A stretch of 30,035 nt of DNA. It comes from a virus. Taxonomy: Duplodnaviria > Caudoviricetes. Under the pieces are notes generated by a model, which saw only the letters and a program-made list of their open reading frames with translations, had not been told where the DNA came from and ran no database searches. Positions 3,401-29,508 of the stretch are shown piece by piece (within the stretch, counting starts at the first letter, position 1; every line of letters starts with the position of its first letter). The translations under genes were made by a program, and so were the position numbers. Where the stretch lies: positions 1-30,035 of the IMG/VR virus record IMGVR_UViG_3300020043_004311. One strand, given 5' to 3'.

Positions 3401-4893
3401 TGCCCTACTTCATCTCACAAAACACAGACTGCCCTGATTGGGCTGTCGTCAAAGAGGATAACTCAGTTGTATCCTGCCAAGACTCAAAAGACTCTGCCAT
3501 TGCACAGATGGTTGCACTATCCCTAGCGGAGAACCTAGAGCCAGGTGGCGAACTCAACTCAACTAGAGAACTACCAGACAACTACCGACCAGCACTTGCC
3601 GATGATGTGCCAGAAGGCCGAGCCTGTGGCAACTGTTTTTTCTTCAACGAGAACCGACTAAACCCAGAGGGTGACAAGGCTTGGTGTGAGCGTTGGGATG
3701 ACTTTGTTGATGGTGGAAACTATTGCAACGCTTGGGAGCCTGATGAGGATGATGACGATTCTATGGGCGAGGAAAGAGCAATCAACCAGGAAGCCCCTGC
3801 CTACATGAGGGCAGCAGCTCGGCGTGGACTTGAGTTTTACGAGAAAGGTCTTGCTGGTGATGGTGTCACCGCTGGAACTATCCGAGAGGCCAGAGCTATG
3901 GCTCGTGGCGAGGTAAGCGATGACAAGTGGATAAGGATTGCAGCTTGGATTGCTAGACACCTTGTAGCCCTTGACTCACCTGATGCAGACCCAAGCTCAG
4001 ACAACTACCCATCTGCCGGTGTGGTTGCACACTTACTTTGGGGATCAGGTCCAAGCAAGAGAGCTGCACAACGCACCAAAGACTACGCTGATTCGGTTGT
4101 TGCTAGAATCAGAGCAGAGGAAACTAATAGCATGAGAACTAACAAGTGGCTAGATGTAGCCAGAGCCATCCAGCTCAAGATTGACGGCCCACAGCCAGAG
4201 TCTAAAGAGCCTGAGATTAGAGTGCACACTACTGACATCGAGGTCAGGGCTGAGGGTGACGGCATGACCTTCACCGGATACGCCGCTGTGTTCAATTCCC
4301 CCTCTGAGGATCTAGGTGGGTTTATTGAGTATGTTGCACCAGGAGCCTTCAAGCGTTCCTTGCAGTCCAGGAATGAAATCAAACTTCTTTGGAACCACGA
4401 CTCAGGTGAACCACTTGCCTCAGTCCGAGGTGGCAGTATGCAGTTGGTTGAGGATGAGCGTGGCCTAAAGGTCACAGCAACCTTGCCACAGACTTCTAGA
4501 GGTCGAGATGTTGCCGAGCTTTTGAGAACTAAAGTTATAGACTCAATGAGCTTTGGTTTCAATGTCATCAAAGATAGCTGGTCAAGAGATGGACAGACAA
4601 GGACATTGGAGTCTGTCAGATTGTTTGAGGTATCAGTCGTGAGCTTCCCAGCGTACGCAGCAACAACCGCACAAGTTAGATCTGCCCCACCGACAATCAA
4701 CCCTGATGAACTTGCCGAGGCTTTACTAAAGCTAGAGTCTGGTGAGGAACTAGACCCCGAAAGTGCCGAGCTAATCACCAATGTGGTAAACAAGCTAAAG
4801 GCACAACCAGACGCAGAGCCAGTTATTGACAACGGCCTTGACCTGCTGGACCTAAAAAAGAAACAATTTGACCTACTACTGAAAAGGATCTAA
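3400..4893 (+). CDS. Prohead protease (HK97 family) with long N-terminal extension including a HiPIP-like 4-Cys module
   Basis: C-terminal half has FTGYAAVFN, LLWNHD (His), SMSFGF (Ser), LFEVSVV (Glu); N-terminal half has CxxC-x16-C-x12-C and a helical domain. Confidence 0.9.
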
Positions 4894-6453: not shown

Positions 6454-7656
6454 ATGGGCAAATCAGGCAACCCAGCCAGAAGTGAAAAGCTAAAGGGTAC
6501 TGTTTCAGTATTCTCAAACTCACCAGGACAGCCAACAGGCTATGGCCAAGCTACCGATGCACTTGTCAAGCTACTAAAGCGACAAGGTGCCAATGTTGCA
6601 GCTCTAAGCAATTATGGGCATGAAGGCATCAACACGATCTACAACACTGAGTACGGCGAGATACCAATCTACGCTAGAGGCTCAGAGGCTTACAGCAACG
6701 ATGTTGCACCAGCTCATCACAAGCACTGGAAGGCTTTGAACGACAAGCAACCAGACTTGATGATTACCCTCTACGATGTTTGGGTTTTGAACTCTAAGGC
6801 TTACGACACAATCCCTATTGCAAGCTGGACACCGATAGACCACAACCCAGTCCCACCTGGTGTCTTGCAGTGGCTAAAAAAAGAAAATGTCACACCCCTA
6901 GCCATGTCTAAGTTTGGGCTTGACCAAATCAACAAAGCAGGTGTCGAGGGCTACTACATACCCCACAGCATTGACACCAAGGTATTCAAACCAACCGACA
7001 AGATACTTGACCAGTCAGTCCAAGAGTTTATGGGTTTTGAGGATGACCGCTTTGTTGTCGGTATGAACGCTGCCAACAAAGCCTCTGGAATCATCCATCG
7101 CAAAGCCTTTGGCGAGAACATGATGGCCTTTGCAATGTTGTGTCGAAAATACCCCGATGCAATCCTTTACATCCACACCGATGCAAGCTCACAGCATGGC
7201 TGGAATCTGATGGCTCTAGGGCAGATGCTAGGTATCCCAGTAGACAACATGGCCTTCCCTGACCCACTCTCCTACCGATACGGCATGACCCAAGAAATGC
7301 TTGCAGGTATCTACTCAAGCTACGATGTCTTACTTGCCCCTAGTTATGGCGAGGGTTTTGGAGTGCCGACTATTGAGGCTCAGGCTTGTGGTGTTCCTGT
7401 TATTGTCAGCAACTTTGCTGCCTCACCTGAGCTAGTCGGAGATGGTTGGGTTGTCAGTGGTCAGCCACTCTACGATCCTGCCCAGCACTCATTCTTTACA
7501 ATCCCATCGGTTCCTGAAATCTTTGCTGCCCTCGAGGAAGCCTACAAGCGTGGCAAGGGTAAGTCAGCTAAGGCCATTGAGTTTGCCCAAGCCTTTGACC
7601 ATGAAAAGGTGTGGCAAGAGAACTGGATGCCGGTGCTTAGAAACCTACTCAAGTGA
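6454..7656 (+). CDS. Glycosyltransferase, GT-B fold (GT4-like)
   Basis: PTGYG N-terminal motif, IPHSID, PSYGEGFGVPTIEAQACGVPVI (ExFG...E motif). Confidence 0.93.
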   Translation: MGKSGNPARSEKLKGTVSVFSNSPGQPTGYGQATDALVKLLKRQGANVAALSNYGHEGINTIYNTEYGEIPIYARGSEAYSNDVAPAHHKHWKALNDKQPDLMITLYDVWVLNSKAYDTIPIASWTPIDHNPVPPGVLQWLKKENVTPLAMSKFGLDQINKAGVEGYYIPHSIDTKVFKPTDKILDQSVQEFMGFEDDRFVVGMNAANKASGIIHRKAFGENMMAFAMLCRKYPDAILYIHTDASSQHGWNLMALGQMLGIPVDNMAFPDPLSYRYGMTQEMLAGIYSSYDVLLAPSYGEGFGVPTIEAQACGVPVIVSNFAASPELVGDGWVVSGQPLYDPAQHSFFTIPSVPEIFAALEEAYKRGKGKSAKAIEFAQAFDHEKVWQENWMPVLRNLLK

Positions 7657-8396
7657 TTGCCTGGATAAGCCATCACCTGCCTGAGTATTGGGATGGCAAG
7701 CTAGTCGGTGGGGCTGAGATGACCGATGCAACCTTGTTGGCTGATGCCCCTGTTGAGGTCAAGACATTCCTGCCACAAGACTGGAAACAGGCAATGGACT
7801 TTGACCAGATAGTCATTACCGGCACAGACCTACTTAGCCCTTATGCAATGTTGCAACTAGCAAAGAAGAACCCTGTTGTTGCAGTCCATCACCAGCAGAC
7901 CCAAAACGAGCACCGAGCCACACTCATCAACTCAGCCAAAACCTTTATCTGCCATACACCTAAGCACCTAGAGCTAGAGCTATCCTGGACCAACCCCAAG
8001 TCAAGCACTTGGATCATTAGCCCTCACGACCCTAGCTTGTTTACTCAAAAGCCAAAAGAGAACTTTGCTCTGTGGGCTGCAAGGATGCACCACCAAAAGG
8101 GGCCAGAGGAAGCTAAGGCATGGGCTAACCAGCAGGGCATACCCCTAGTGATGATGCATGACAAGACTAGGGCAGAGGTCCTAGAGGCAATGAGCCGAGC
8201 CAGCCACTTTGTCTTTCTACCTAACGGCTTTGATGCCGAGCCTCGCACAATTATCGAAGCAGTCCTGTCGGGCTGTGAGGTACACACTAACGACCTTGCT
8301 GGTGTCAGTTCGATACCAAACTGGCGTGACCCTCAAGTGCTGACCGAGCTAATCACCAATTCTAAGGATCTATTTTGGCAAACAGTCCTACGGTAG
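7653..8396 (+). CDS. Compact GT-B glycosyltransferase
   Basis: GGAE N-terminal motif, R...KG, FVFLP..FDAEPRTIIEAVLSGC (E-x7-E type motif, variant). Confidence 0.8.
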   Translation: MIAWISHHLPEYWDGKLVGGAEMTDATLLADAPVEVKTFLPQDWKQAMDFDQIVITGTDLLSPYAMLQLAKKNPVVAVHHQQTQNEHRATLINSAKTFICHTPKHLELELSWTNPKSSTWIISPHDPSLFTQKPKENFALWAARMHHQKGPEEAKAWANQQGIPLVMMHDKTRAEVLEAMSRASHFVFLPNGFDAEPRTIIEAVLSGCEVHTNDLAGVSSIPNWRDPQVLTELITNSKDLFWQTVLR

Positions 8397-9061
8397 GAAT
8401 CTGCTCAAGTCTGTTTGGCACTGGCTACTCAGGCTTTTACCCTCGATGGTGGGCAGGGGTCAAGTCACTCAATAAGCAACCAGCCGAGATAGTTATTGTC
8501 CATGACCCTGACAACAGGGCCGAGGTGCTGGACTCTATCCCACAAGATTACAAGTCAATAACAAAGACAATAGAAATGACCGGCACTTACTCAGACTTTA
8601 GGCTGGCAATGCAAAGGGCACTAAAGACCGACTGGCTATCAGTAGGCGATGTAGATGACCAGTATCTATCAGGTGCTTTTGACGAACTAGATCAGGCTGA
8701 TGCTGAGGGCTGTGACATCTACATTGACAAGGTGCAATTCAAACATAACGGCTCAATCTTTGAAGGCACTTGGCAACCCGACCAGATACCTTACAGAATG
8801 ACTTGCCCTGGCAACGCCCCTATCAAGCGAGAGCTGTATGAAAAAACAGGTGGCTCAACATCAGGTAGCTTCTACGATGACTGGGAGCTTTACATCAGAT
8901 GTGTTGCTGCTGGTGCCAAGCCTTTCCACGCCTCGACTGTTAGGCTGATTCACGACCTCGGCCATGACAGAGTGACACTCAGCGGTGTCAACAGGCCAAG
9001 TATCAACGACAGCATCGGGCAAGATGCAATTGCCAAAGTTCGACTAGAGCTTGGCTTTTAG
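8375..9061 (+). CDS. GT-A fold glycosyltransferase (GT2-like)
   Basis: EIVIVHD, DVDD (DxD motif), GG...YDDWELYIR; TTG start with AAGGA RBS. Confidence 0.8.
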   Translation: MANSPTVGICSSLFGTGYSGFYPRWWAGVKSLNKQPAEIVIVHDPDNRAEVLDSIPQDYKSITKTIEMTGTYSDFRLAMQRALKTDWLSVGDVDDQYLSGAFDELDQADAEGCDIYIDKVQFKHNGSIFEGTWQPDQIPYRMTCPGNAPIKRELYEKTGGSTSGSFYDDWELYIRCVAAGAKPFHASTVRLIHDLGHDRVTLSGVNRPSINDSIGQDAIAKVRLELGF

Positions 9062-9071
9062 AGAGGAAGCA

Positions 9072-10103
9072 ATGAAGGTAGGAATCACAGGCGGTCAGGG
9101 CTTTATTGGGTCATGGGTTGCAGAGGAACTTGTGAGGCGAGGCCACTCAGTCCTAATCCTCGATCACCGAGTACGGACCCACGCCGACAATGTAATGCTT
9201 GGAGATGTTAGGGATGAAACAGCAGTCATGGAGTTTGCAGCTCATGTTGACGGCATCATCCACTTAGCAGCAGTCTTGGGCACAGTAGAAACTATTGACC
9301 GACCCTTGCCAGCAGCACAAACAAACATCATTGGAACCCTCAATGTATTTGAGGCTGCTTCACGCTATGACCTACCAGTTGTCTTTGCTGCTGTAGGTAA
9401 TGCCAACATTGCCAGAGGAACCTACTGCATAACTAAGTCAGCATCAGAACGCTTTGTTGAGATGTACCGAGAGGACCGAGGCCTTAGAGTCACAAGCGTT
9501 AGACCTATGAACGCCTATGGCCCAAGGCAGTCTGCCCCTGAGCCTTATGGATCTGCCAAGGTCAGGAAGATTGTGCCTAGCTTTGTTTGCTCTGCCCTAG
9601 CTGGTGACCCACTTAGGGTCTACGGAGATGGCACTCAGGTCAGCGATTCAGTCTGGGTAGGCGATGTGGCCAGAGTCTTTGTGAGTGCCCTAGAGAAGGC
9701 AGCCGAGGGCATAGTCCCAACACACCCAATAGATGTGGGCAATGAGCACCCGACCACAGTGCTTGATGTTGCCAATGAGGTAATCAAGAATGTGCCAGGT
9801 GCAACACTTGACACTGTACCCATGAGAGCCGGTGAACCCTTTGGCGGTCCGATGAGCACTCAGGCAGACTTGCTCAAGGTTGTCGAGGCAGTCAAGTCAG
9901 CCAACCCAAACCTTAGACCTGTGGATGTTAGGCGTGTTGTCCGAGAGCTGGGCACAGTAGTAAGTGCAGACATCACAACCCTTCAGGTTATAGGAATTGA
10001 CCCTGCCAGCTTCAAGCCACTATCCGAAGGTATTGCCGAAACTGTTGCCTGGTTCAAAGCTAACAAGGGCACAACTTGGGATACTTTTCAGCAAGTAGAA
10101 TAG
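9072..10103 (+). CDS. NAD-dependent NDP-sugar epimerase/dehydratase (extended SDR)
   Basis: GGQGFIG Rossmann motif, IIHLAA, NIIGTLNV, YCITK (YxxxK), NAYGP, VYGDGTQ; RBS GAGAGGA favours ATG 9072. Confidence 0.93.
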   Translation: MKVGITGGQGFIGSWVAEELVRRGHSVLILDHRVRTHADNVMLGDVRDETAVMEFAAHVDGIIHLAAVLGTVETIDRPLPAAQTNIIGTLNVFEAASRYDLPVVFAAVGNANIARGTYCITKSASERFVEMYREDRGLRVTSVRPMNAYGPRQSAPEPYGSAKVRKIVPSFVCSALAGDPLRVYGDGTQVSDSVWVGDVARVFVSALEKAAEGIVPTHPIDVGNEHPTTVLDVANEVIKNVPGATLDTVPMRAGEPFGGPMSTQADLLKVVEAVKSANPNLRPVDVRRVVRELGTVVSADITTLQVIGIDPASFKPLSEGIAETVAWFKANKGTTWDTFQQVE

Positions 10104-18999: not shown

Positions 19000-19272
19000 T
19001 CAGTTTGACCTAAGCCTTGAGCGTTCCTCGCTAGTTGTCCCACCCCAGATACCAACCATGTGGGCTGATAAGGCATAGTCAAAGCACCTAAGCCTGACAG
19101 GGCAGTCATTACAGACTTCTTTTGCTACTGCAACTAACTTTTTACGCAGGTATAGATCAGGCTCATCATCGGGGAAGAAACAGTTGGGTAGCTGAGAGCA
19201 CTGCACCCCACCGTTCTCTCGGATTGCCTCTTGCAGTTCAATGTATTTACGCTCTATTTGTCTTGATGTCAT
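19000..19272 (-). CDS. whiB: WhiB-family Fe-S transcription regulator
   Basis: C...FFP...AK.VCNDCPV...C...AL...GIWGGT...ER; four Cys plus G[IV]WGG. Confidence 0.93.
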   Translation of the reverse strand: MTSRQIERKYIELQEAIRENGGVQCSQLPNCFFPDDEPDLYLRKKLVAVAKEVCNDCPVRLRCFDYALSAHMVGIWGGTTSEERSRLRSN

Positions 19273-19288: not shown

Positions 19289-19299
19289 AAAAGCAAGAC

Positions 19300-19373
19300 A
19301 AAAGGCAAACCCACGCCGAGAGAGTTAGCGTGGGTTGCCGGACAAGATGAAAAGAGAGGGAAACACCTTGCCA
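19300..19373 (-). ncRNA. Putative cis-antisense RNA to the yqaJ leader
   Basis: Minus-strand TAGTTT -10 (19385-19380), hairpin with loop UUUCCCUCUCUUUU, terminator hairpin plus U4; G-U pairs form only on minus. Confidence 0.55.
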
Positions 19374-20258
19374 GTATCCAAACTACCAAGCGAATCAAAC
19401 CAGTTGCTTGAGGCAGTCCTACTAGGTGACTTTGCCAACGGCTCCCCTGAATGGCATGAGCTACGCAATGAGCCAGGTGTTATCGGTGGGTCAGACATCG
19501 CCGCTTGTGCAGGACTATCAAGCTGGACCTCACCCATCACACTCTGGGCAAAGAAAACAGGGCAGATACCTGATGAGGTCACACCTAACATGAGCATGAA
19601 GCTTGGCACAATTCTTGAAAACCCTATCCTCGAACTGTTTGCAGACGAGCACCCTGAGCTAAAGATTCTGACAACAGGAACTTGGGCTAACAAAACTTAC
19701 CCTTGGATGAGAGCAAACCCAGACGGCCTTTACCTAGATGCCAATGGTGAGTGGGGCATTGTCGAGGTCAAGTTCTCTCGGGACTACTGGACAGCGGTGC
19801 CACAGAGTTATCGAGCACAAGTGCTTTGGTACATGAAGGTCTTTGGTATCCGGCAAGCCAAGCTTGTTGCCCTTGCAGGGTCGAGCTACCAGGAGTATGA
19901 CATTGAGTGGGATGAGTTTGAGGCAGACAGCTTGTTTGAGTCTGCTGTCAGATTCCGACAGGCTTGCCTCGATCTAAAGATGCCTGACTGGGATGGTAGC
20001 AACTCAACGCTAGAAACAGTCAGAGCCTTGAACCCTTACATTGAGGATGGCGAGGTTGACCTTGATGAGCTTGGGGTGCACTACTTCAACGCTGTGACAG
20101 ATGCCGAGGCAGCTAACACCAAACTAACCGAGCTAAAGAGTAGAGTCGTAAAAGCTATGGAAGGTAAGAAGCGAGGGCTAGTGTACGGTGACCACATGAT
20201 TAGCCTTAGATCAAGAGCCGGTGGGATGCCCTACCTGCACCACGAGAAGGGAAAGTAA
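19368..20258 (+). CDS. YqaJ-like (lambda exonuclease family) recombination exonuclease
   Basis: EW..LR...IGGSD, LW..KTG, G..LE, ANPDG, VEVK, Y.AQV.WY; TTG start after GAGAGGG SD (ORF track start 19335). Confidence 0.9.
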   Translation: MPVSKLPSESNQLLEAVLLGDFANGSPEWHELRNEPGVIGGSDIAACAGLSSWTSPITLWAKKTGQIPDEVTPNMSMKLGTILENPILELFADEHPELKILTTGTWANKTYPWMRANPDGLYLDANGEWGIVEVKFSRDYWTAVPQSYRAQVLWYMKVFGIRQAKLVALAGSSYQEYDIEWDEFEADSLFESAVRFRQACLDLKMPDWDGSNSTLETVRALNPYIEDGEVDLDELGVHYFNAVTDAEAANTKLTELKSRVVKAMEGKKRGLVYGDHMISLRSRAGGMPYLHHEKGK

Positions 20259-21225: not shown

Positions 21226-21241
21226 CTGGTAGCCTTGCTGG

Positions 21242-21457
21242 GTGATAGCCGAAACCTGCTCATGTGGTGCCAAGTTCAGGACCGATGAACCTGAGCCGGT
21301 CAAGCTTGTCCGAGAGTGGCGAAGGAAACATACCTGCCAAGAGCAAGACATTACCGACACACCTACCAGCGGTCTAGCAGACACACAGCTTGCAATGGGA
21401 TTCCAACCAGGTGAGATGCCAGCAAAGAAGCATGACCCTTGGGAAGATGATGAGTAA
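21242..21457 (+). CDS. Small Cys/His (zinc-binding) protein, probably leaderless
   Basis: CSCG...WR..H.C; TAGCCT 6 nt before GTG. Confidence 0.65.
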   Translation: MIAETCSCGAKFRTDEPEPVKLVREWRRKHTCQEQDITDTPTSGLADTQLAMGFQPGEMPAKKHDPWEDDE

Positions 21458-21831: not shown

Positions 21832-21858
21832 GGTGCTAGGGTGGAAACATAACTAAAT

Positions 21859-21918
21859 AAAAGGCCCCCCTGAGAGAACTCAGAAGGGCCGATACCAACA
21901 ACTGGACTGTTGGCATCC
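21859..21918 (-). ncRNA. Putative cis-antisense RNA to the replication operon leader
   Basis: Minus-strand TATGAT -10 (21930-21925), 10-bp hairpin, then 12-bp terminator hairpin plus U-tract; three G-U pairs form only on minus. Confidence 0.6.
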
Positions 21919-21962
21919 CTACTAATCATAGTGTGCCAACTCATTAGAGAAAGGCACATTTT

Positions 21963-22160
21963 ATGTTTAACTGGGACAACAAAAACCTCGCTGAGGTTCT
22001 GGAAATGTATGGCAACAACATCTTTATGGCCGAGATGGATTATCAGGCTATGGGACTCGACAACGGCCAATGGGTAATGCTAGTCAAAGAGGGCTACGAT
22101 AACAGAGTCATTAGCCCAACAGTAATGATGCTGATGGCTGAGAGAGCAGCTGCAAGATGA
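21963..22160 (+). CDS. Hypothetical 65-aa protein translationally coupled to the initiator
   Basis: GAAAGG SD; ATGA overlap with the next gene. Confidence 0.65.
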   Translation: MFNWDNKNLAEVLEMYGNNIFMAEMDYQAMGLDNGQWVMLVKEGYDNRVISPTVMMLMAERAAAR

Positions 22161-22828
22161 GCGGTGTTTACAAGATTTACCGGCACGATTCGCAACCCTT
22201 TGCCCAGGTGCCCAACAGTGCAATCAGAGATCCAGAGATAAGCCCCAACGCTTTTAGATTGCTTGCTTACCTCATGAGCCACAAAGAGGGCTATGAGCTG
22301 ACCTATGGGCAGATAGAGCGACAGACAACACTTGGCCGATACGCAATCAACGAAGCAATCAAAGTGCTTACTGACAAAGGCTGGCTGAGGACAGAGAGAA
22401 CCAAGAAAGACAACGGCCAGTTTGGTCCAACCTCGTTTCACATCCTTGACCCAGAGGCGGTTGATTCCATAGCGGATGACTCCAGCGTGGGTGGTTCCAC
22501 TATGGAACAGCCAACGGACAATAAGAATACTAATTACTTAGAGAATACTAAAGATAAAGAAAAACACTTAGAGGGGTTTGAAACATTTTGGTTGTTGTAT
22601 CCAAAAAAGGTAGCTAAAGCTGATGCCCTAAAAGCTTGGAAACAAGCAACAAAGAAAAAAACCGCTGATGAGTTGATTGGACTTGTCAAGGTCTACTCTG
22701 AGGGCAAACTACCCGACCAGCAATACATCCCCTACCCAGCCTCTTGGCTAAACAAAGAGCTTTACGATACAGTCCAGGTAGAGCAACCCAAAACATTCCC
22801 GACCCCAATCTACGGCAGGATCAAGTGA
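22157..22828 (+). CDS. Replication initiator (N-terminal winged HTH)
   Basis: F..VPN..IRD..IS..A..LL.YL.SH; FETFW.LYPKKV.K..A.KAW; YIPYPASWLN; upstream of DnaB. Confidence 0.85.
   Translation: MSGVYKIYRHDSQPFAQVPNSAIRDPEISPNAFRLLAYLMSHKEGYELTYGQIERQTTLGRYAINEAIKVLTDKGWLRTERTKKDNGQFGPTSFHILDPEAVDSIADDSSVGGSTMEQPTDNKNTNYLENTKDKEKHLEGFETFWLLYPKKVAKADALKAWKQATKKKTADELIGLVKVYSEGKLPDQQYIPYPASWLNKELYDTVQVEQPKTFPTPIYGRIK
22466..22573. other. Putative replication origin inside the initiator gene
   Basis: Three TCCA-N3-(C/T)GG(A/G) quasi-palindromes at 15-bp period followed by AT-rich AGAATACTAA repeats. Confidence 0.55.
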
Positions 22829-24057
22829 GCAACTTCGAGGAATCAGTCATCGGCTCAGTGCTGCTAACTAACGGCAAAGCACTCGATGACCTGACACTCA
22901 CACCGGCAGACTTCTACGACCTCAACAACGGCAAAATCTACGAGGCCATGCTTGAGCTAAAGCGTGACAGGCAGCCTTTAGATGTTGTCACTGTTTCTGC
23001 AATGTTGCCTCGGTTTGCAAGCTTCCTGCATGACTGCATGACAGCAACCCCAACCGCTGCAAGTGTCGGCTACTACGCCACCAAGGTAGTCGAGGAATCA
23101 ACTAGGCGAAAGCTCGCACAAGCTGGCACCATGATTCACCTCAAGGCTCAGAGCGATGACCTACCTGCTGCTATGGATCAAGCCAAGAGAGAGATTGACA
23201 ACCTCATTGACAGAAACCAAGCAACCAAACCTAGCTATGTTTCTGAGGAACTAATCCCTTACCTCGATGAGATTGACAAGCCAAAAGATTACCCAGTCAG
23301 CCCTTGGGCAGGACTCAATGACATCCTCGGTGGCTTTAGACCAGGTGCCCTTTACATCATCGGTGCTCGACCTGGTATCGGTAAAACAATCGTTGGCTTG
23401 CAGATTGCTTGGGAGCTATCCAAGACAGGACCGGTCAGCTTTCACTCACTTGAGATGGGCAAGTCAGAGTTGTACAACAGAATCATCTCGATGGAAGCTG
23501 AGGTCTACATTGGCAACATTGAGAAGGGCACACTCAAGGATGTTGACTGGACCAAGATTGCCAGGGCAAGAGAAGAAATCCAAAAGCACCAGCTCGCTAT
23601 CCATGACAAGTCAGGCCAGAACCTAATGCAGATTAGAGCCTTAGCAAACTCAGTCAAGGGCAACGGCAAGCTCAGGGCGATTGTTGTTGACTACCTTGGT
23701 TTGATTCAGGACACAGAGAAGGGCCGAAAGAGATACGAGATGATTACCGACATCTCCATCGGGCTCAAGAACCTAGCTCGTGACCTCGATGTCCCAGTCA
23801 TTGCCCTAGCCCAGCTCAACCGAGGACCAGAGCAACGCAAAGACTCGAAGCCCGACCTAGCTGACCTTAGAGATTCAGGCGGTATCGAGCAAGACGCTGA
23901 TGCAGTAATCCTGTTGCACCGAGAGTCAATAGCTGAGGATCAGTTTGAGTGGCAAAAGAGCTGGATGATTATGAAGGTTGCAAAGAACCGACAAGGTGGC
24001 TTAGGCGAGGCAGGACTCAAGTTCGAGGGTCACCTGTCCAGAGTTGTCGAGGGCTAA
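22825..24057 (+). CDS. dnaB: Replicative DNA helicase, DnaB family
   Basis: GARPGIGKT Walker A, SLEM, IVVDYL, AQLNR, DLRDSGGIEQDAD, KNRQG; GTG start overlapping the initiator stop. Confidence 0.95.
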   Translation: MSNFEESVIGSVLLTNGKALDDLTLTPADFYDLNNGKIYEAMLELKRDRQPLDVVTVSAMLPRFASFLHDCMTATPTAASVGYYATKVVEESTRRKLAQAGTMIHLKAQSDDLPAAMDQAKREIDNLIDRNQATKPSYVSEELIPYLDEIDKPKDYPVSPWAGLNDILGGFRPGALYIIGARPGIGKTIVGLQIAWELSKTGPVSFHSLEMGKSELYNRIISMEAEVYIGNIEKGTLKDVDWTKIARAREEIQKHQLAIHDKSGQNLMQIRALANSVKGNGKLRAIVVDYLGLIQDTEKGRKRYEMITDISIGLKNLARDLDVPVIALAQLNRGPEQRKDSKPDLADLRDSGGIEQDADAVILLHRESIAEDQFEWQKSWMIMKVAKNRQGGLGEAGLKFEGHLSRVVEG

Positions 24058-24875: not shown

Positions 24876-25254
24876 CGTTGTCGGTGATCCTGCCAGCCAA
24901 GGCAGTCACGCAATTATGCAGGGCCGAATAGTCCAAGTCAATAGCAAGAAACACAAGGCTTGGCGAAACGCCATCACCCAAACAGCCCTCGCAACCCTGC
25001 CAGCCGACTGGGAACCCATTGACGAGCCATGCGAGCTTATTGTCAACTTCTACATGCCAAAGCCAGCGTCAGCAAAACGCTCATTGCCTACTGTCAGCCC
25101 AGACCTAGACAAGCTGATTAGGGCAGTCGGGGACAGCCTCACAGACTCAGGGGTAGTCGTAGATGACAGCCGAATTGTCAGGATCTCAGCCCGAAAGCTC
25201 TACGCCATAGGCATTGAACCAGGTGCCACCATCGAGGTCAGAACCCTCAACTAG
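24856..25254 (+). CDS. rusA: RusA-family Holliday junction resolvase
   Basis: G.P.SQGS, PDLDKL.RAV.DSL, DDSRIV motifs. Confidence 0.9.
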   Translation: MAEVSLSVVGDPASQGSHAIMQGRIVQVNSKKHKAWRNAITQTALATLPADWEPIDEPCELIVNFYMPKPASAKRSLPTVSPDLDKLIRAVGDSLTDSGVVVDDSRIVRISARKLYAIGIEPGATIEVRTLN

Positions 25255-25263
25255 GGGTTTATT

Positions 25264-25335
25264 CCGACACGCCGAAAAAGGCAAAAAAACCTAAAAAATA
25301 CCAAAAAAAGCCAAAAAAGGTGCTAGGTTTGTCTT
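25264..25335 (+). promoter_or_regulatory. Promoter with five phased A-tracts and upstream GACAC
   Basis: CCGACACGCC; A5-A7 tracts ending at 25279, 25289, 25298, 25309, 25318; gcTAGGTT at 25324-25329. Confidence 0.6.
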
Positions 25336-25369
25336 ATGACCCAAGGGGGGTCAAAGAAGGAGCACCAAA

Positions 25370-25558
25370 ATGAGCAACATTCAAGACATCATGGCAACAG
25401 CAAAAGTTTCACAGACAGACGCAGTAGAGCTACAAGAAGTCATCATGAACGAGGACTTGCTTGATTGGTCAGAGTGCACCACAGCTCAGTTCAAGAAGGC
25501 AATCAAATTAGCTCAGTCTTTTATTGCTAATGGCAAGAGCTGGGAGTTCACAGCATGA
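25370..25558 (+). CDS. Hypothetical protein
   Basis: 62 aa, strong AAGGAG RBS. Confidence 0.7.
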   Translation: MSNIQDIMATAKVSQTDAVELQEVIMNEDLLDWSECTTAQFKKAIKLAQSFIANGKSWEFTA

Positions 25559-27314: not shown

Positions 27315-28462
27315 AAAACTTAGAGCCAGCCCCAAAGCTAACCCCACCAAAAGATTGGCGGCCAGCAGTACAGTTCGATGGAACTAACGGCGAGGCAACC
27401 ACACCACCGACCACCGGCAACCAGCCAGACTTTGACCAATTCCTACTTGATCAAGGTTTCTCACCTGAGCTAATCGAAATCTACGGCCCGATTAGAACAT
27501 CTCGTTGGCAACAGCGAGAAGGCGGTGACTGGCTGGTTAGCTGGCGGTTTAACTTTCGCATGAAGGCAGACCTTGATGTTGACCTGCCAACACTTTATGC
27601 ACAGGCAAAGAAAACTAAGTTGCCAGCCAGAAAAGAAACCAACCAAGGCAAGGCACTTGTCATTGTGCCAGCCGACTACCAGGTAGGCAAGGTAGGTAGC
27701 AGGGGCAACACCCAAGACCTCATTGCCAGAGTCTTTGCAAGCTACGAACGCATCGAGCAAAAGCTAAAGCATGGCAAGTACGAGAAGGTCATCATCCTCG
27801 ATGCAGGGGACATGATTGAGTCGGTATCAAACAAGGCAAGCATGGCTCAACTTGAAAGCAACGACCTCTCGCCATTCCAGCAACAAGACCTCGCTGCTGC
27901 CTTACTGTGGGATCTAATAAAGCTGGCTCACAAGTACGCACCAGTGACCTATGCCTCAGTAGGGTCCAACCATTGCCAGTGGCGAGTCAACGGTCAGGCA
28001 GTCGGTAAGCCAGGGCTAGATGATGTTGGCATTGTCATTTTGCAACAGCTAAGGCGATTGAGCACCGAGCTGGGCATGGATGTCAACTACCTGATTCCAG
28101 ACCCTTACGATGAGTCACTAGCCTTTGATGTCTTTGGCGATGAGTTCCACATCCTTGCAGTAGCTCATGGACACCAAGCTGCCCGACCTAACGGAGTACC
28201 TGATTGGCTAATCAAGCAGACCTACTCTCAAGGCCCAATCTCAGCCTTTACCACTTTTGTCAGCGGTCACTTCCACCATGTCAGGGTTGAGGAACTAGCA
28301 CCTGCAAGCAATGGGGGATCTAGGTATTGGATTCAGGCTTCAACCAGCGACAATGGCAGTGATTGGTTTCGCTTGAAAAGTGGGACTGAGAGTACAACCG
28401 GAATTGTCTGCTTTGAGCTTGAGCGTGAGGTTCACTTTCGAGGCACAATCTACAAACTCTAA
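27302..28462 (+). CDS. Calcineurin-like metallophosphoesterase (Mre11/SbcD superfamily)
   Basis: ADYQ.GK, GDMIE, SNH, HGH, GHFH motifs. Confidence 0.85.
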   Translation: MLLLENLEPAPKLTPPKDWRPAVQFDGTNGEATTPPTTGNQPDFDQFLLDQGFSPELIEIYGPIRTSRWQQREGGDWLVSWRFNFRMKADLDVDLPTLYAQAKKTKLPARKETNQGKALVIVPADYQVGKVGSRGNTQDLIARVFASYERIEQKLKHGKYEKVIILDAGDMIESVSNKASMAQLESNDLSPFQQQDLAAALLWDLIKLAHKYAPVTYASVGSNHCQWRVNGQAVGKPGLDDVGIVILQQLRRLSTELGMDVNYLIPDPYDESLAFDVFGDEFHILAVAHGHQAARPNGVPDWLIKQTYSQGPISAFTTFVSGHFHHVRVEELAPASNGGSRYWIQASTSDNGSDWFRLKSGTESTTGIVCFELEREVHFRGTIYKL

Positions 28463-28481
28463 GTTGCAGGAAAAGAGAGAG

Positions 28482-29039
28482 ATGAAAATCGGGAGCCTAT
28501 TCAGCGGCTATGGCGGACTTGACCTAGCAGTCAGTAAAGTCCTCAACGCCGAGGTTGCTTGGCATTGTGAATGGGAGGATGCCCCGAGCAAAGTGCTTGA
28601 GGCGAACTTCCCAGGCGTGCCTAACTACCGAGATGTAAGCAAGGTTGACTGGCACTCAGTTGAGCCTGTTGACATCCTCACAGGGGGATTCCCTTGCCAA
28701 GACTTATCACTAGCTGGCAAGCGTGCCGGACTACAAGAGGGAACTAGATCAGGTCTGTGGTCAGAGTTCTACAAAGCCATTGACATCCTCAGACCATCAC
28801 TTGTTGTTATCGAAAATGTAAGGGGTTTACTAAGTGCCAAAGCAGATAGCGGTCTGGAATACGGACCTGAAATTATGGTCAAGCTCAAAGACCAGCCAGC
28901 CCTCAGAGCCTTGGGAGCCGTTCTTGGGGACTTGGCCGAAATCGGGTATGACGCAAAGTGGACAAGCGTTCGAGCTTCCGATGCAGGTGCCCCTCACCAA
29001 AGGTTCAGAGTCTTTATCACTGCCTACCCCAACCACTAG
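28482..29039 (+). CDS. C5-cytosine DNA methyltransferase, N-terminal subunit (motifs I-VIII)
   Basis: LFSGYGG, GGFPCQD, ENV, HQRFRVF; stops directly after motif VIII. Confidence 0.9.
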   Translation: MKIGSLFSGYGGLDLAVSKVLNAEVAWHCEWEDAPSKVLEANFPGVPNYRDVSKVDWHSVEPVDILTGGFPCQDLSLAGKRAGLQEGTRSGLWSEFYKAIDILRPSLVVIENVRGLLSAKADSGLEYGPEIMVKLKDQPALRALGAVLGDLAEIGYDAKWTSVRASDAGAPHQRFRVFITAYPNH

Positions 29040-29508
29040 AGATTACAAAGACGGCTCGGCTGATCACAAAAGGAAGGGCAAAGTTCAGACAGACACAGTA
29101 GCTAGGGCAATCTTTAGTAGCGGTGAGATAGCCCTCATGGGCACACCACGCACCAGCTCTGCTAACGGCTCAACACCTAAGCAAGTAGCAGCAGGGGCAC
29201 CAAAGGCTCGCATTGAGGATCAAGTCTTGCTAACTAACTGGGGCAAGTTCGAGCCAGCCATAAGACGCTGGGAAGCCATCCTTGGCAGACAAGCACCAGA
29301 GCCTACGAAGCCAGACGGAAAAGACGGAAACCACAGACTGTCATCCAAGTTCACCGAGTGGATGATGGGGCTACCTGATGGCTGGATAACCAGACACAAT
29401 CTAAAACGCAATGATGAGCTAAAGCTTGCAGGTAATGGAGTTGTGCCACAACAGGCTGAGTTAGCATTGAGGCTATTGCTTGAGTTGCCAGAGATAAGAG
29501 AGAACTAA
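28834..29508 (+). CDS. C5-cytosine DNA methyltransferase, C-terminal subunit (TRD, motifs IX-X)
   Basis: LPTP, RLS..F.EWMMGLP.GW, LKLAGNGVVPQQA; AAGGGG SD before GTG; different frame overlapping the first part. Confidence 0.8.
   Translation: MPKQIAVWNTDLKLWSSSKTSQPSEPWEPFLGTWPKSGMTQSGQAFELPMQVPLTKGSESLSLPTPTTRDYKDGSADHKRKGKVQTDTVARAIFSSGEIALMGTPRTSSANGSTPKQVAAGAPKARIEDQVLLTNWGKFEPAIRRWEAILGRQAPEPTKPDGKDGNHRLSSKFTEWMMGLPDGWITRHNLKRNDELKLAGNGVVPQQAELALRLLLELPEIREN

Follow-up and report, generated by a model that had tools for sequence, protein, structure and literature searches.

A conserved and covarying RNA element was found at the head of a phage replication operon, where it likely acts as a plasmid-type cis-antisense translational switch. 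We give this reading, which was built from sequence comparison and folding models, a probability of about 0.75. The RNA element is real, widespread, and apparently undescribed.

Phage and operon context

The element was studied in a window of 30,035 nt, meaning the whole stretch of DNA analyzed, which is one virus record. The window contains siphovirus head and tail genes along with whiB, yqaJ, and an HNH gene; a 65-aa ORF, a lambda-O-like initiator, and DnaB form its replication operon. Pfam and phrog profile searches revealed neither an integrase nor a repressor. The replication initiator (22157..22828, plus strand), which has a lambda-O-like HTH, matched phrog_270 (E 4e-35) and the Pfam families MarR_2 and HTH_36, with no match to RepA_N, and a search for an iteron array in its gene found none. 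The DnaB helicase (22825..24057, plus strand; PF03796 and PF00772) is translated from 22825. As the earlier note had claimed, an ATGA overlap (at 22157) joins the ORF, at 21963-22160, to the initiator; the initiator is joined to DnaB by a GTGA overlap at 22825. The initiator carries its own GAGAG-type ribosome site, so its coupling to the upstream ORF may not be strict. The initiator is also a mosaic in the window (22157-22828) and its relatives, in which at least five N-terminal and two C-terminal types have been exchanged between genomes that are close in other respects.

Among annotated relatives of the initiator, the best is RepO from Pontimonas phage phiPsal1 (37% identity), and we therefore infer a streamlined Microbacteriaceae host. 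The phages that carry the element are small and aquatic, and their hosts are likely Actinobacteria.

Conservation of the element

Protein-anchored loci were fetched by DnaB or initiator similarity, which brought no pattern bias and gave 58 distinct stretches from the HNH gene to the next gene. The core of the element was present in 55 of them, and these copies carry 27 different loops. Pattern scans, in which a match was kept when the minus-strand fold upstream reached -18 kcal/mol or lower, enlarged the set to 175 distinct copies. These stand before many initiator types and have six stem sequences with compensatory changes. Searches anchored on the HNH gene and the initiator reached versions of the element with other letters, among them that of phiPsal1, which lies directly 5' of RepO and differs in the letters of all three pairings described below. 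Many relatives have the HNH gene directly 5' of the initiator and lack the element, despite having the same initiator types, which makes the element optional across the wider group. L123, a chance match, was left out of the counts, as were L109 and L096 from the protein-anchored comparison and one empty record from the comparison of the second element near 19300. Since MAFFT misplaced one leader segment (C, below) between clades, pair counts were anchored segment by segment.

A pattern scan of GTDB returned 16 matches, none with the full architecture, and the window-type core was complete in no GTDB species genome. Plasmid DNA gave no match, and the element was absent 5' of the initiator in Microbacterium phage Matzah and Gordonia phage Morgana. 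The isolate-derived matches L619-L628 and L633 were rejected as chance matches inside coding DNA. In Rfam, neither of the window's two elements had a match at E<=1, and in eight loci the main element had none at E<=0.5. A full-text literature search (most subscription journals lay outside it) returned no description of the element. Parts of it may stand, with no function assigned, among the 8,495 unannotated IMG/VR candidate RNAs of Fremin 2023 (PMC10690425).

Several structures were seen around the element or at similar sites. Morgana has a minus-strand hairpin (L640:1355-1415; region z -3.8) and an SD-closing hairpin 5' of a RepA-like gene, with no A:B target and no evident antisense -10 box. 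Between the HNH gene and the switch, L086 carries a tmRNA-like RNA cut to its tRNA-like domain (1432-1513, about 82 nt), which matched RF00023 at E 1.3e-10, below the gathering score, and has its own promoter-like motif; similar insertions occur in L022, L043, L068, L088, and L103. A different structured insertion of about 90 nt, whose long arms are complementary and which matched nothing in Rfam, occupies the same site in L030 (about 3430-3530), L040, and L104, and a short tRNA-like one, with no Rfam match at E<=0.5, in L063 (about 1255-1330). There are also natural deletions, where assembly errors are possible: the antisense terminator hairpin is missing from L155 and the A-rich tail from L110.

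Exclusive pairings in the sense leader

The sense leader is predicted to start at about 21849 from an extended -10 promoter on the plus strand (TG-C-TAGGGT, 21834..21842; TG at 21834-35), and the TGnTANNNT motif was present in 93 of 146 distinct regions upstream of the element. The motifs on which the earlier note had built its proposal were all at the correct coordinates: TAGGGT (21837-42), GTTGGCA (21909-15), TATGAT in reverse (21930-25), GTGTGCC (21931-37), TGCCAAC (21934-40), GAAAGG (21949-54), and GGCACAT (21953-59).

Four segments of the leader, A (21895-900), B (21908-16), C (21931-40), and D (21953-59), form three exclusive pairings. A:B (21895-900 with 21908-13), which the earlier note did not contain, is the target of the predicted antisense RNA; this hairpin spans 21895..21913 on the plus strand, has a 7-nt variable loop at 21901-21907, and occurs with six A/B stem variants. 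The ON hairpin B:C (21909..21940, plus strand), drawn from folding and pairing counts, leaves the ribosome site open and holds the antisense -10 box. The OFF hairpin C:D (21930..21960, plus strand), drawn from folding, shuts the Shine-Dalgarno (SD) region (GAAAGG) just 5' of the start codon.

When the window leader was folded by transcript length, A:B formed first, B:C was found at 3' ends from 21942 to 21954, and A:B with C:D appeared from 21957 and was the final minimum of the full leader. Folding of RNAs that end after C gave B:C as the dominant pairing in 166 of the 175 copies. At equilibrium, the full leader was mostly OFF even without antisense RNA, with A:B dominant in 151/175 copies, and in the window the OFF form was favoured at -45.4 kcal/mol versus -33.6.

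The mutually exclusive pairings claimed earlier were supported by conservation, covariation, and folding models, and covariation across relatives showed the alternative pairings to be conserved with compensatory changes. A:B has six variants with zero mismatched combinations among the 175 copies. This included the 87 CCGATR and nine CCGGYA copies, where the pattern permitted a mismatch, and A:B was exact in 98 of 101 raw pattern matches. For B:C, 394 of 500 cells were paired versus 338 +/- 7 after shuffling, in a register picked to maximise pairing. The closing stem comes in two types. In type I (135/175 copies) C pairs with D, and 197 of 217 cells were paired versus 150 +/- 5 after shuffling in 31 representatives chosen for at least five pairs; the stem ends at most 3 nt from the start codon in 124 of these 135 copies. 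In type II (27/175) the partner of the SD is an anti-SD located between B and C, and 16 representatives show matching changes. The remaining 13 copies fit neither type and have no clear closing stem. In folding, a copy's own partners were about 5 kcal/mol better than swapped ones on average, and the own partner was better than 90% of swaps in only nine of 18 representatives for B:C and 11 of 18 for the closing hairpin.

Predicted antisense RNA

An antisense RNA of about 63 nt is predicted on the minus strand at 21855..21918, with a 5' hairpin (21917-21891), a terminator (21890-21863), and a U tail. The two hairpins are perfect, with 11 and 12 bp and two G-U pairs each. The minus-strand fold of this stretch was -37.7 kcal/mol (z -6.9, reached by 0/200 shuffles) compared to -26.3 for the plus strand; the minus strand folded better in all 18 representatives, and a terminator search gave a match within the antisense stretch. 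The predicted -10 box of the antisense promoter, TATGAT (21925..21930, minus strand), stands at a fixed spacing from B. A reverse TANNNT lay 7-11 nt past B in 55/55 protein-anchored copies, with no pattern forcing it, and the free fourth position of the box was A in 117 of 147. A start counted seven bases from the box falls on the base of the first hairpin, leaving a 5' tail of 0-1 nt in 174/175 copies. At least five U follow the terminator in 163/175 copies, and terminator loops measure 3-12 nt. Sequence signals and folding supported the claimed antisense promoter, hairpin, and terminator with G-U pairs, and the transcript is a prediction. In three runs from the same study, a single contig (85%-like) fell on the HNH gene and none covered the element, which is a blank and not evidence.

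Because the antisense RNA would have no 5' tail, loop-loop contact is the likely route of binding. A YUNR motif was found on either strand in 39 of 92 loops and was absent from 53. It occurred less often than expected from column shuffles, with 10 versus 20.8 on the sense strand and 34 versus 38.0 on the antisense strand.

Proposed switch and rival explanations

We propose that A:B folds first and would display its 7-nt loop. Without antisense RNA, B would switch to C and the ribosome site would be open briefly, while the remaining leader is transcribed. Antisense RNA on A-loop-B would leave C with D alone, and the first gene would be silenced; in type II copies, binding would free the anti-SD to pair with the SD. 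The stop/start overlaps would relay silencing to the initiator and DnaB. The level of antisense RNA would track genome copies and so cap initiator synthesis, and the loop alleles would decide which co-resident genomes silence one another.

The earlier note had suggested that the antisense RNA locks the SD-closed form, and folding models lent support to this. Blocking A-loop-B raised the modelled cost of opening positions -15 to +6 from a median of 9.1 to 12.5 kcal/mol, with a median rise of 3.6 and a rise of at least 1.5 in 153/175 copies. In an in-silico control that exchanged arm A for arm B, the rise was 0.3 and reached 1.5 in 26/175. For the window's leader type, the cost was 10.5 unblocked and 13.3 blocked. 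The modelled ON-to-OFF barrier was modest (median 7.3 kcal/mol), so that the ON form would depend on kinetics. Since the ON form is metastable, expression would rest on ribosomes catching a brief opening or a small open fraction.

Various other explanations were considered. In pT181-like attenuation, the antisense RNA would induce termination of transcription at C:D, acting as an intrinsic terminator instead of or besides blocking the ribosome site. In the window's clade, 77 of 78 copies have at least four T after the closing stem, and the OFF hairpin of plasmid pSA564 is proposed to serve both functions (PMC8129170). However, at most two T follow the stem in 90 of 97 copies outside that clade, type II copies shut the SD by a different, covarying anti-SD arm, and type I stems mostly end within 3 nt of the start codon (124/135), all of which make attenuation improbable as the explanation. 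Because the U-rich run is limited to the window's clade, translation appears to be the general output, to which attenuation may add there. A device of the sense strand alone, such as a kinetic or temperature-sensitive translational damper whose minus-strand hairpin serves as an insulator against stray transcription, would fit a leader that relaxes to OFF unaided in the models and a counter-transcript predicted from sequence signals alone. We nevertheless regard it as unlikely, since it leaves unexplained the minus-strand -10 box at a fixed distance (55/55), a loop whose length is fixed but whose sequence is free (7 nt in 92 of 96, where the pattern permitted 6-7), and the base of A:B, an A.C mismatch that becomes a G-U pair only on the antisense strand in 48/50 representatives.

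It is very unlikely that the small RNA does something else, such as encoding a leaderless peptide, priming replication, or regulating a target in the host or in another phage. The window RNA does begin near an ATG that opens 26 codons, and mycobacterial prophages have been described with RNA-based origins (PMC7157519). This frame is not conserved, however, running from 4 to 47 codons in the window's clade, and 63 of the 97 other copies have no ATG. In addition, the RNA ends in a strong terminator and the phages encode an initiator protein, and segment B, the antisense complement, covaries with C downstream, which ties the RNA to the cis leader.

First gene under the proposed switch

In the window, the first operon gene is the 65-aa ORF (21963..22160, plus strand), whose product is a four-helix protein with no function assigned. 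It follows 67 of the 175 copies, all in the window's clade, and none of the 97 non-CCAACA copies. The protein has 240 homologues and a confident four-helix model (pLDDT 93), with no PDB or BFVD match at E<=0.001; a CopG-like identity was ruled out by its four helices and lack of a strand. Its stop overlaps or abuts the next start in 40/40 distinct 3' ends, which fits coupling but is no proof of it. In most copies without this ORF, the switch appears from the sequence to be placed directly on the initiator's own ribosome site. Six or seven copies have a mini-ORF; in six it has 11-14 codons and runs up to or into the start of the initiator. In another four the initiator itself comes first. Among the other long first genes, 77 of 100 matched an initiator profile, and most of the rest resembled, by eye, GIY-YIG or HNH insertions. 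Such GIY-YIG-like or HNH-like genes are repeatedly inserted just 5' or 3' of the switch, several being the first controlled gene (L014, L030, L069, L071, L097, L424, L500, L546, and others).

In plasmid R1, the leader peptide tap is coupled to rep. The parallel with R1 CopA/tap was not supported in the form drawn earlier, since the 65-aa ORF follows just 67/175 copies and folds as a confident protein. The ORF is a real gene under the switch and not a required tap-like peptide.

Variation of the loop

The copies carry 96 loop sequences, 92 of them 7 nt long. Identical scaffolds with different loops were seen in 16 cases, and 17 of 36 loop alleles were shared by two or more of five initiator types. 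Across 25 close pairs with no overlap between pairs, 51/125 central loop positions differed compared to 172/1353 four-fold sites, and a split-half control gave 0.54 for the loop versus 0.19. Loop differences in close pairs were about three times those at synonymous sites of the flanking genes and mostly all-or-none, with nine of the 25 pairs identical and 14 having at least three changes. Where both non-coding flanks were identical, 32/215 loop positions differed versus 173/968, which counts against diversification. Loop alleles were not spaced apart either, with one-step neighbours numbering 29 versus 21.8 expected and 80 versus 59.4. The evidence for diversifying selection on the loop is mixed. 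Recombination of whole cassettes can explain much of the loop pattern, and free drift of a self-compensating cis-antisense loop together with cassette exchange is sufficient. Selection for new loop specificities is possible.

Comparison with known systems

Antisense control of copy number is a plasmid hallmark, and the plasmid-like antisense logic proposed earlier was supported, with the closest counterpart being the ON/OFF switch of pSK41/pSA564 and not R1 CopA/tap. In the RepA_N plasmids pSK41, pSK1, and pSA564, the counter-transcript has two stem-loops of which the second is the terminator, the exclusive ON/OFF folds follow a GG(up)-CC(mid)-GG(down) plan in which OFF hides the ribosome site of the replication gene, and the antisense -10 box lies within the ON stem, all as predicted here (PMC8129170). 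For pSA564, this GG-CC-GG plan, including the position of the antisense -10 box, was shown genetically (PMC8129170). The element has these folds too and, judging by sequence signals, a counter-transcript with its own promoter and terminator in the rep leader. It differs from the plasmid systems in standing in virion-encoding phages before a lambda-O-like initiator that has no RepA_N Pfam match, in lacking a U tract after the OFF stem in most copies, and in having a second (type II) closing geometry. Its leader is about 114 nt, compared to 197 nt for the RepA_N system, and the likely contact loop is that of the 5' hairpin (96 sequences) instead of the terminator loop as in pSA564 (PMC8129170). 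Because the initiator family and contact loop differ, the element works like pSK41/pSA564 but is not a member.

The I-complex plasmids (ColIb-P9, pMU720) and R1 CopA/tap resemble the element in loop-loop antisense control upstream of the initiator (PMC10286972, PMC3753616). A further likeness is that the window's clade has a short ORF overlapping the initiator start, and a few copies have only a mini-ORF there. In contrast to these systems, there is no obligatory leader ORF here, YUNR is not kept, and Rfam gave no match. The loop sequence is free and B:C uses a stem arm; since B comes from the stem and not the loop, the activating pseudoknot that the I-complex forms from its target loop is not needed. 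In the pT181/pIP501 attenuators, antisense RNA on a nascent 5' hairpin redirects downstream folding, as proposed here (PMC3753616), whereas the output here appears to be translational in most copies.

Phage immunity RNAs (P4 CI, P1 c4, lambda OOP, P22 sar) are likewise small phage RNAs acting on early genes; P4 CI shuts off replication genes and OOP is a counter-transcript in the lambda replication region (PMC4825925, PMC12197685). Unlike the element, P4 CI is processed out of a transcript from the same strand and brings about termination, the targets of c4 and sar are antirepressor genes, and that of OOP is cII; in the passages cited, none of the four is described as a counter-transcript that refolds the initiator's ribosome site (PMC4825925, PMC12197685). 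Finally, pMV158 RNAII and pGA1 ctRNA are short counter-transcripts at the rep translation start (PMC4485353, PMC9592669). The main element differs in having no single-stranded 5' tail (0-1 nt in 174/175) and in not being overlapped by its antisense RNA at the ribosome site.

Second predicted antisense RNA

A second antisense RNA of about 79 nt is predicted on the minus strand at 19295..19373, with a hairpin loop complementary to the yqaJ Shine-Dalgarno followed by a terminator (19339-19304). Its fold had a z of -6.9, and the two-hairpin fold was found in 25/25 distinct copies as well as in the distant L096, with different letters. The predicted extended -10 box (19380..19388, minus strand) lies inside yqaJ codons 5-7, where it uses free third positions and was in a fixed place in 30/31 relatives; the yqaJ Leu codon in the box ends in A in 31/31, compared to 44/126 in the background. 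The terminator loop is nearly invariant (20/28). Because the relatives are close, these counts are not independent, and the 19300 element was not apparent in the stretches inspected from two distant element-bearing genomes. The idea that this hairpin is a mere insulator was dropped given the conserved -10 box and two-hairpin fold.

The 19300 element, which the earlier note had named as part of a possible RNA-based circuit, does look like an antisense RNA, but one of the direct type, which would itself mask the yqaJ ribosome site in that recombination operon. The RNA is predicted from the sequence to accompany the main switch in the window's clade. pMV158 RNAII and pGA1 ctRNA are its nearer analogues, from which it differs in targeting a recombination operon. 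The neighboring whiB gene (19000..19272, minus strand; PF02467) is divergent from yqaJ and probably leaderless, with a -10 box (19284-79) seven bases 5' of its ATG.

Lifestyle and significance

Among five near-complete relatives, none had a tyrosine integrase, ParA (PF13614), or resolvase, and HTH_3 appeared below the cut-off in two. phiPsal1 has genes annotated as cI/cro-like. Its circular-mapping genome was present at 2% host stoichiometry and absent from a second DNA preparation, and its authors called it lytic and poorly adapted (PMC6106888). These data allow for a transient carrier state but do not demonstrate one.

The conserved, predicted antisense control on the replication operon of small, lytic-looking phages suggests self-limited replication or persistence without an integrase or a recognisable repressor. 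This is relevant to the survival of phages that infect slow-growing Actinobacteria of fresh and coastal waters when host activity is low. We suggest, tentatively and at clearly less than even odds, an RNA-only immunity of these abundant, integrase-less phages in which two counter-transcripts silence the recombination and replication operons and the genome, plasmid-like but unpartitioned, is carried along in streamlined Actinobacteria that grow slowly. Some 100 loop alleles would then define types for incompatibility or superinfection exclusion and be reshuffled independently of the initiator. The variable loop is a concrete candidate determinant for phage-phage exclusion, by which rivals with the same loop might be excluded. 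The 175 compact switches with 96 loops also form a natural library of possibly orthogonal translational regulators, a kind now engineered by hand in synthetic biology (PMC3753616).

Other features of the window

At 21227-21457, an extended -10 box seven bases 5' of a GTG marks a probable leaderless 71-aa gene that is kept in relatives. Back-to-back extended -10 boxes (minus strand 25303, plus strand 25321) lie in an A-rich gap between hairpins at 25250-25370 and may mark a divergent promoter or a third small RNA. A C5 DNA methyltransferase is divided between two overlapping frames at 28380-29508, and a block of glycosyltransferase and nucleotide-sugar epimerase genes stands between the capsid and connector genes at 6454-10103.
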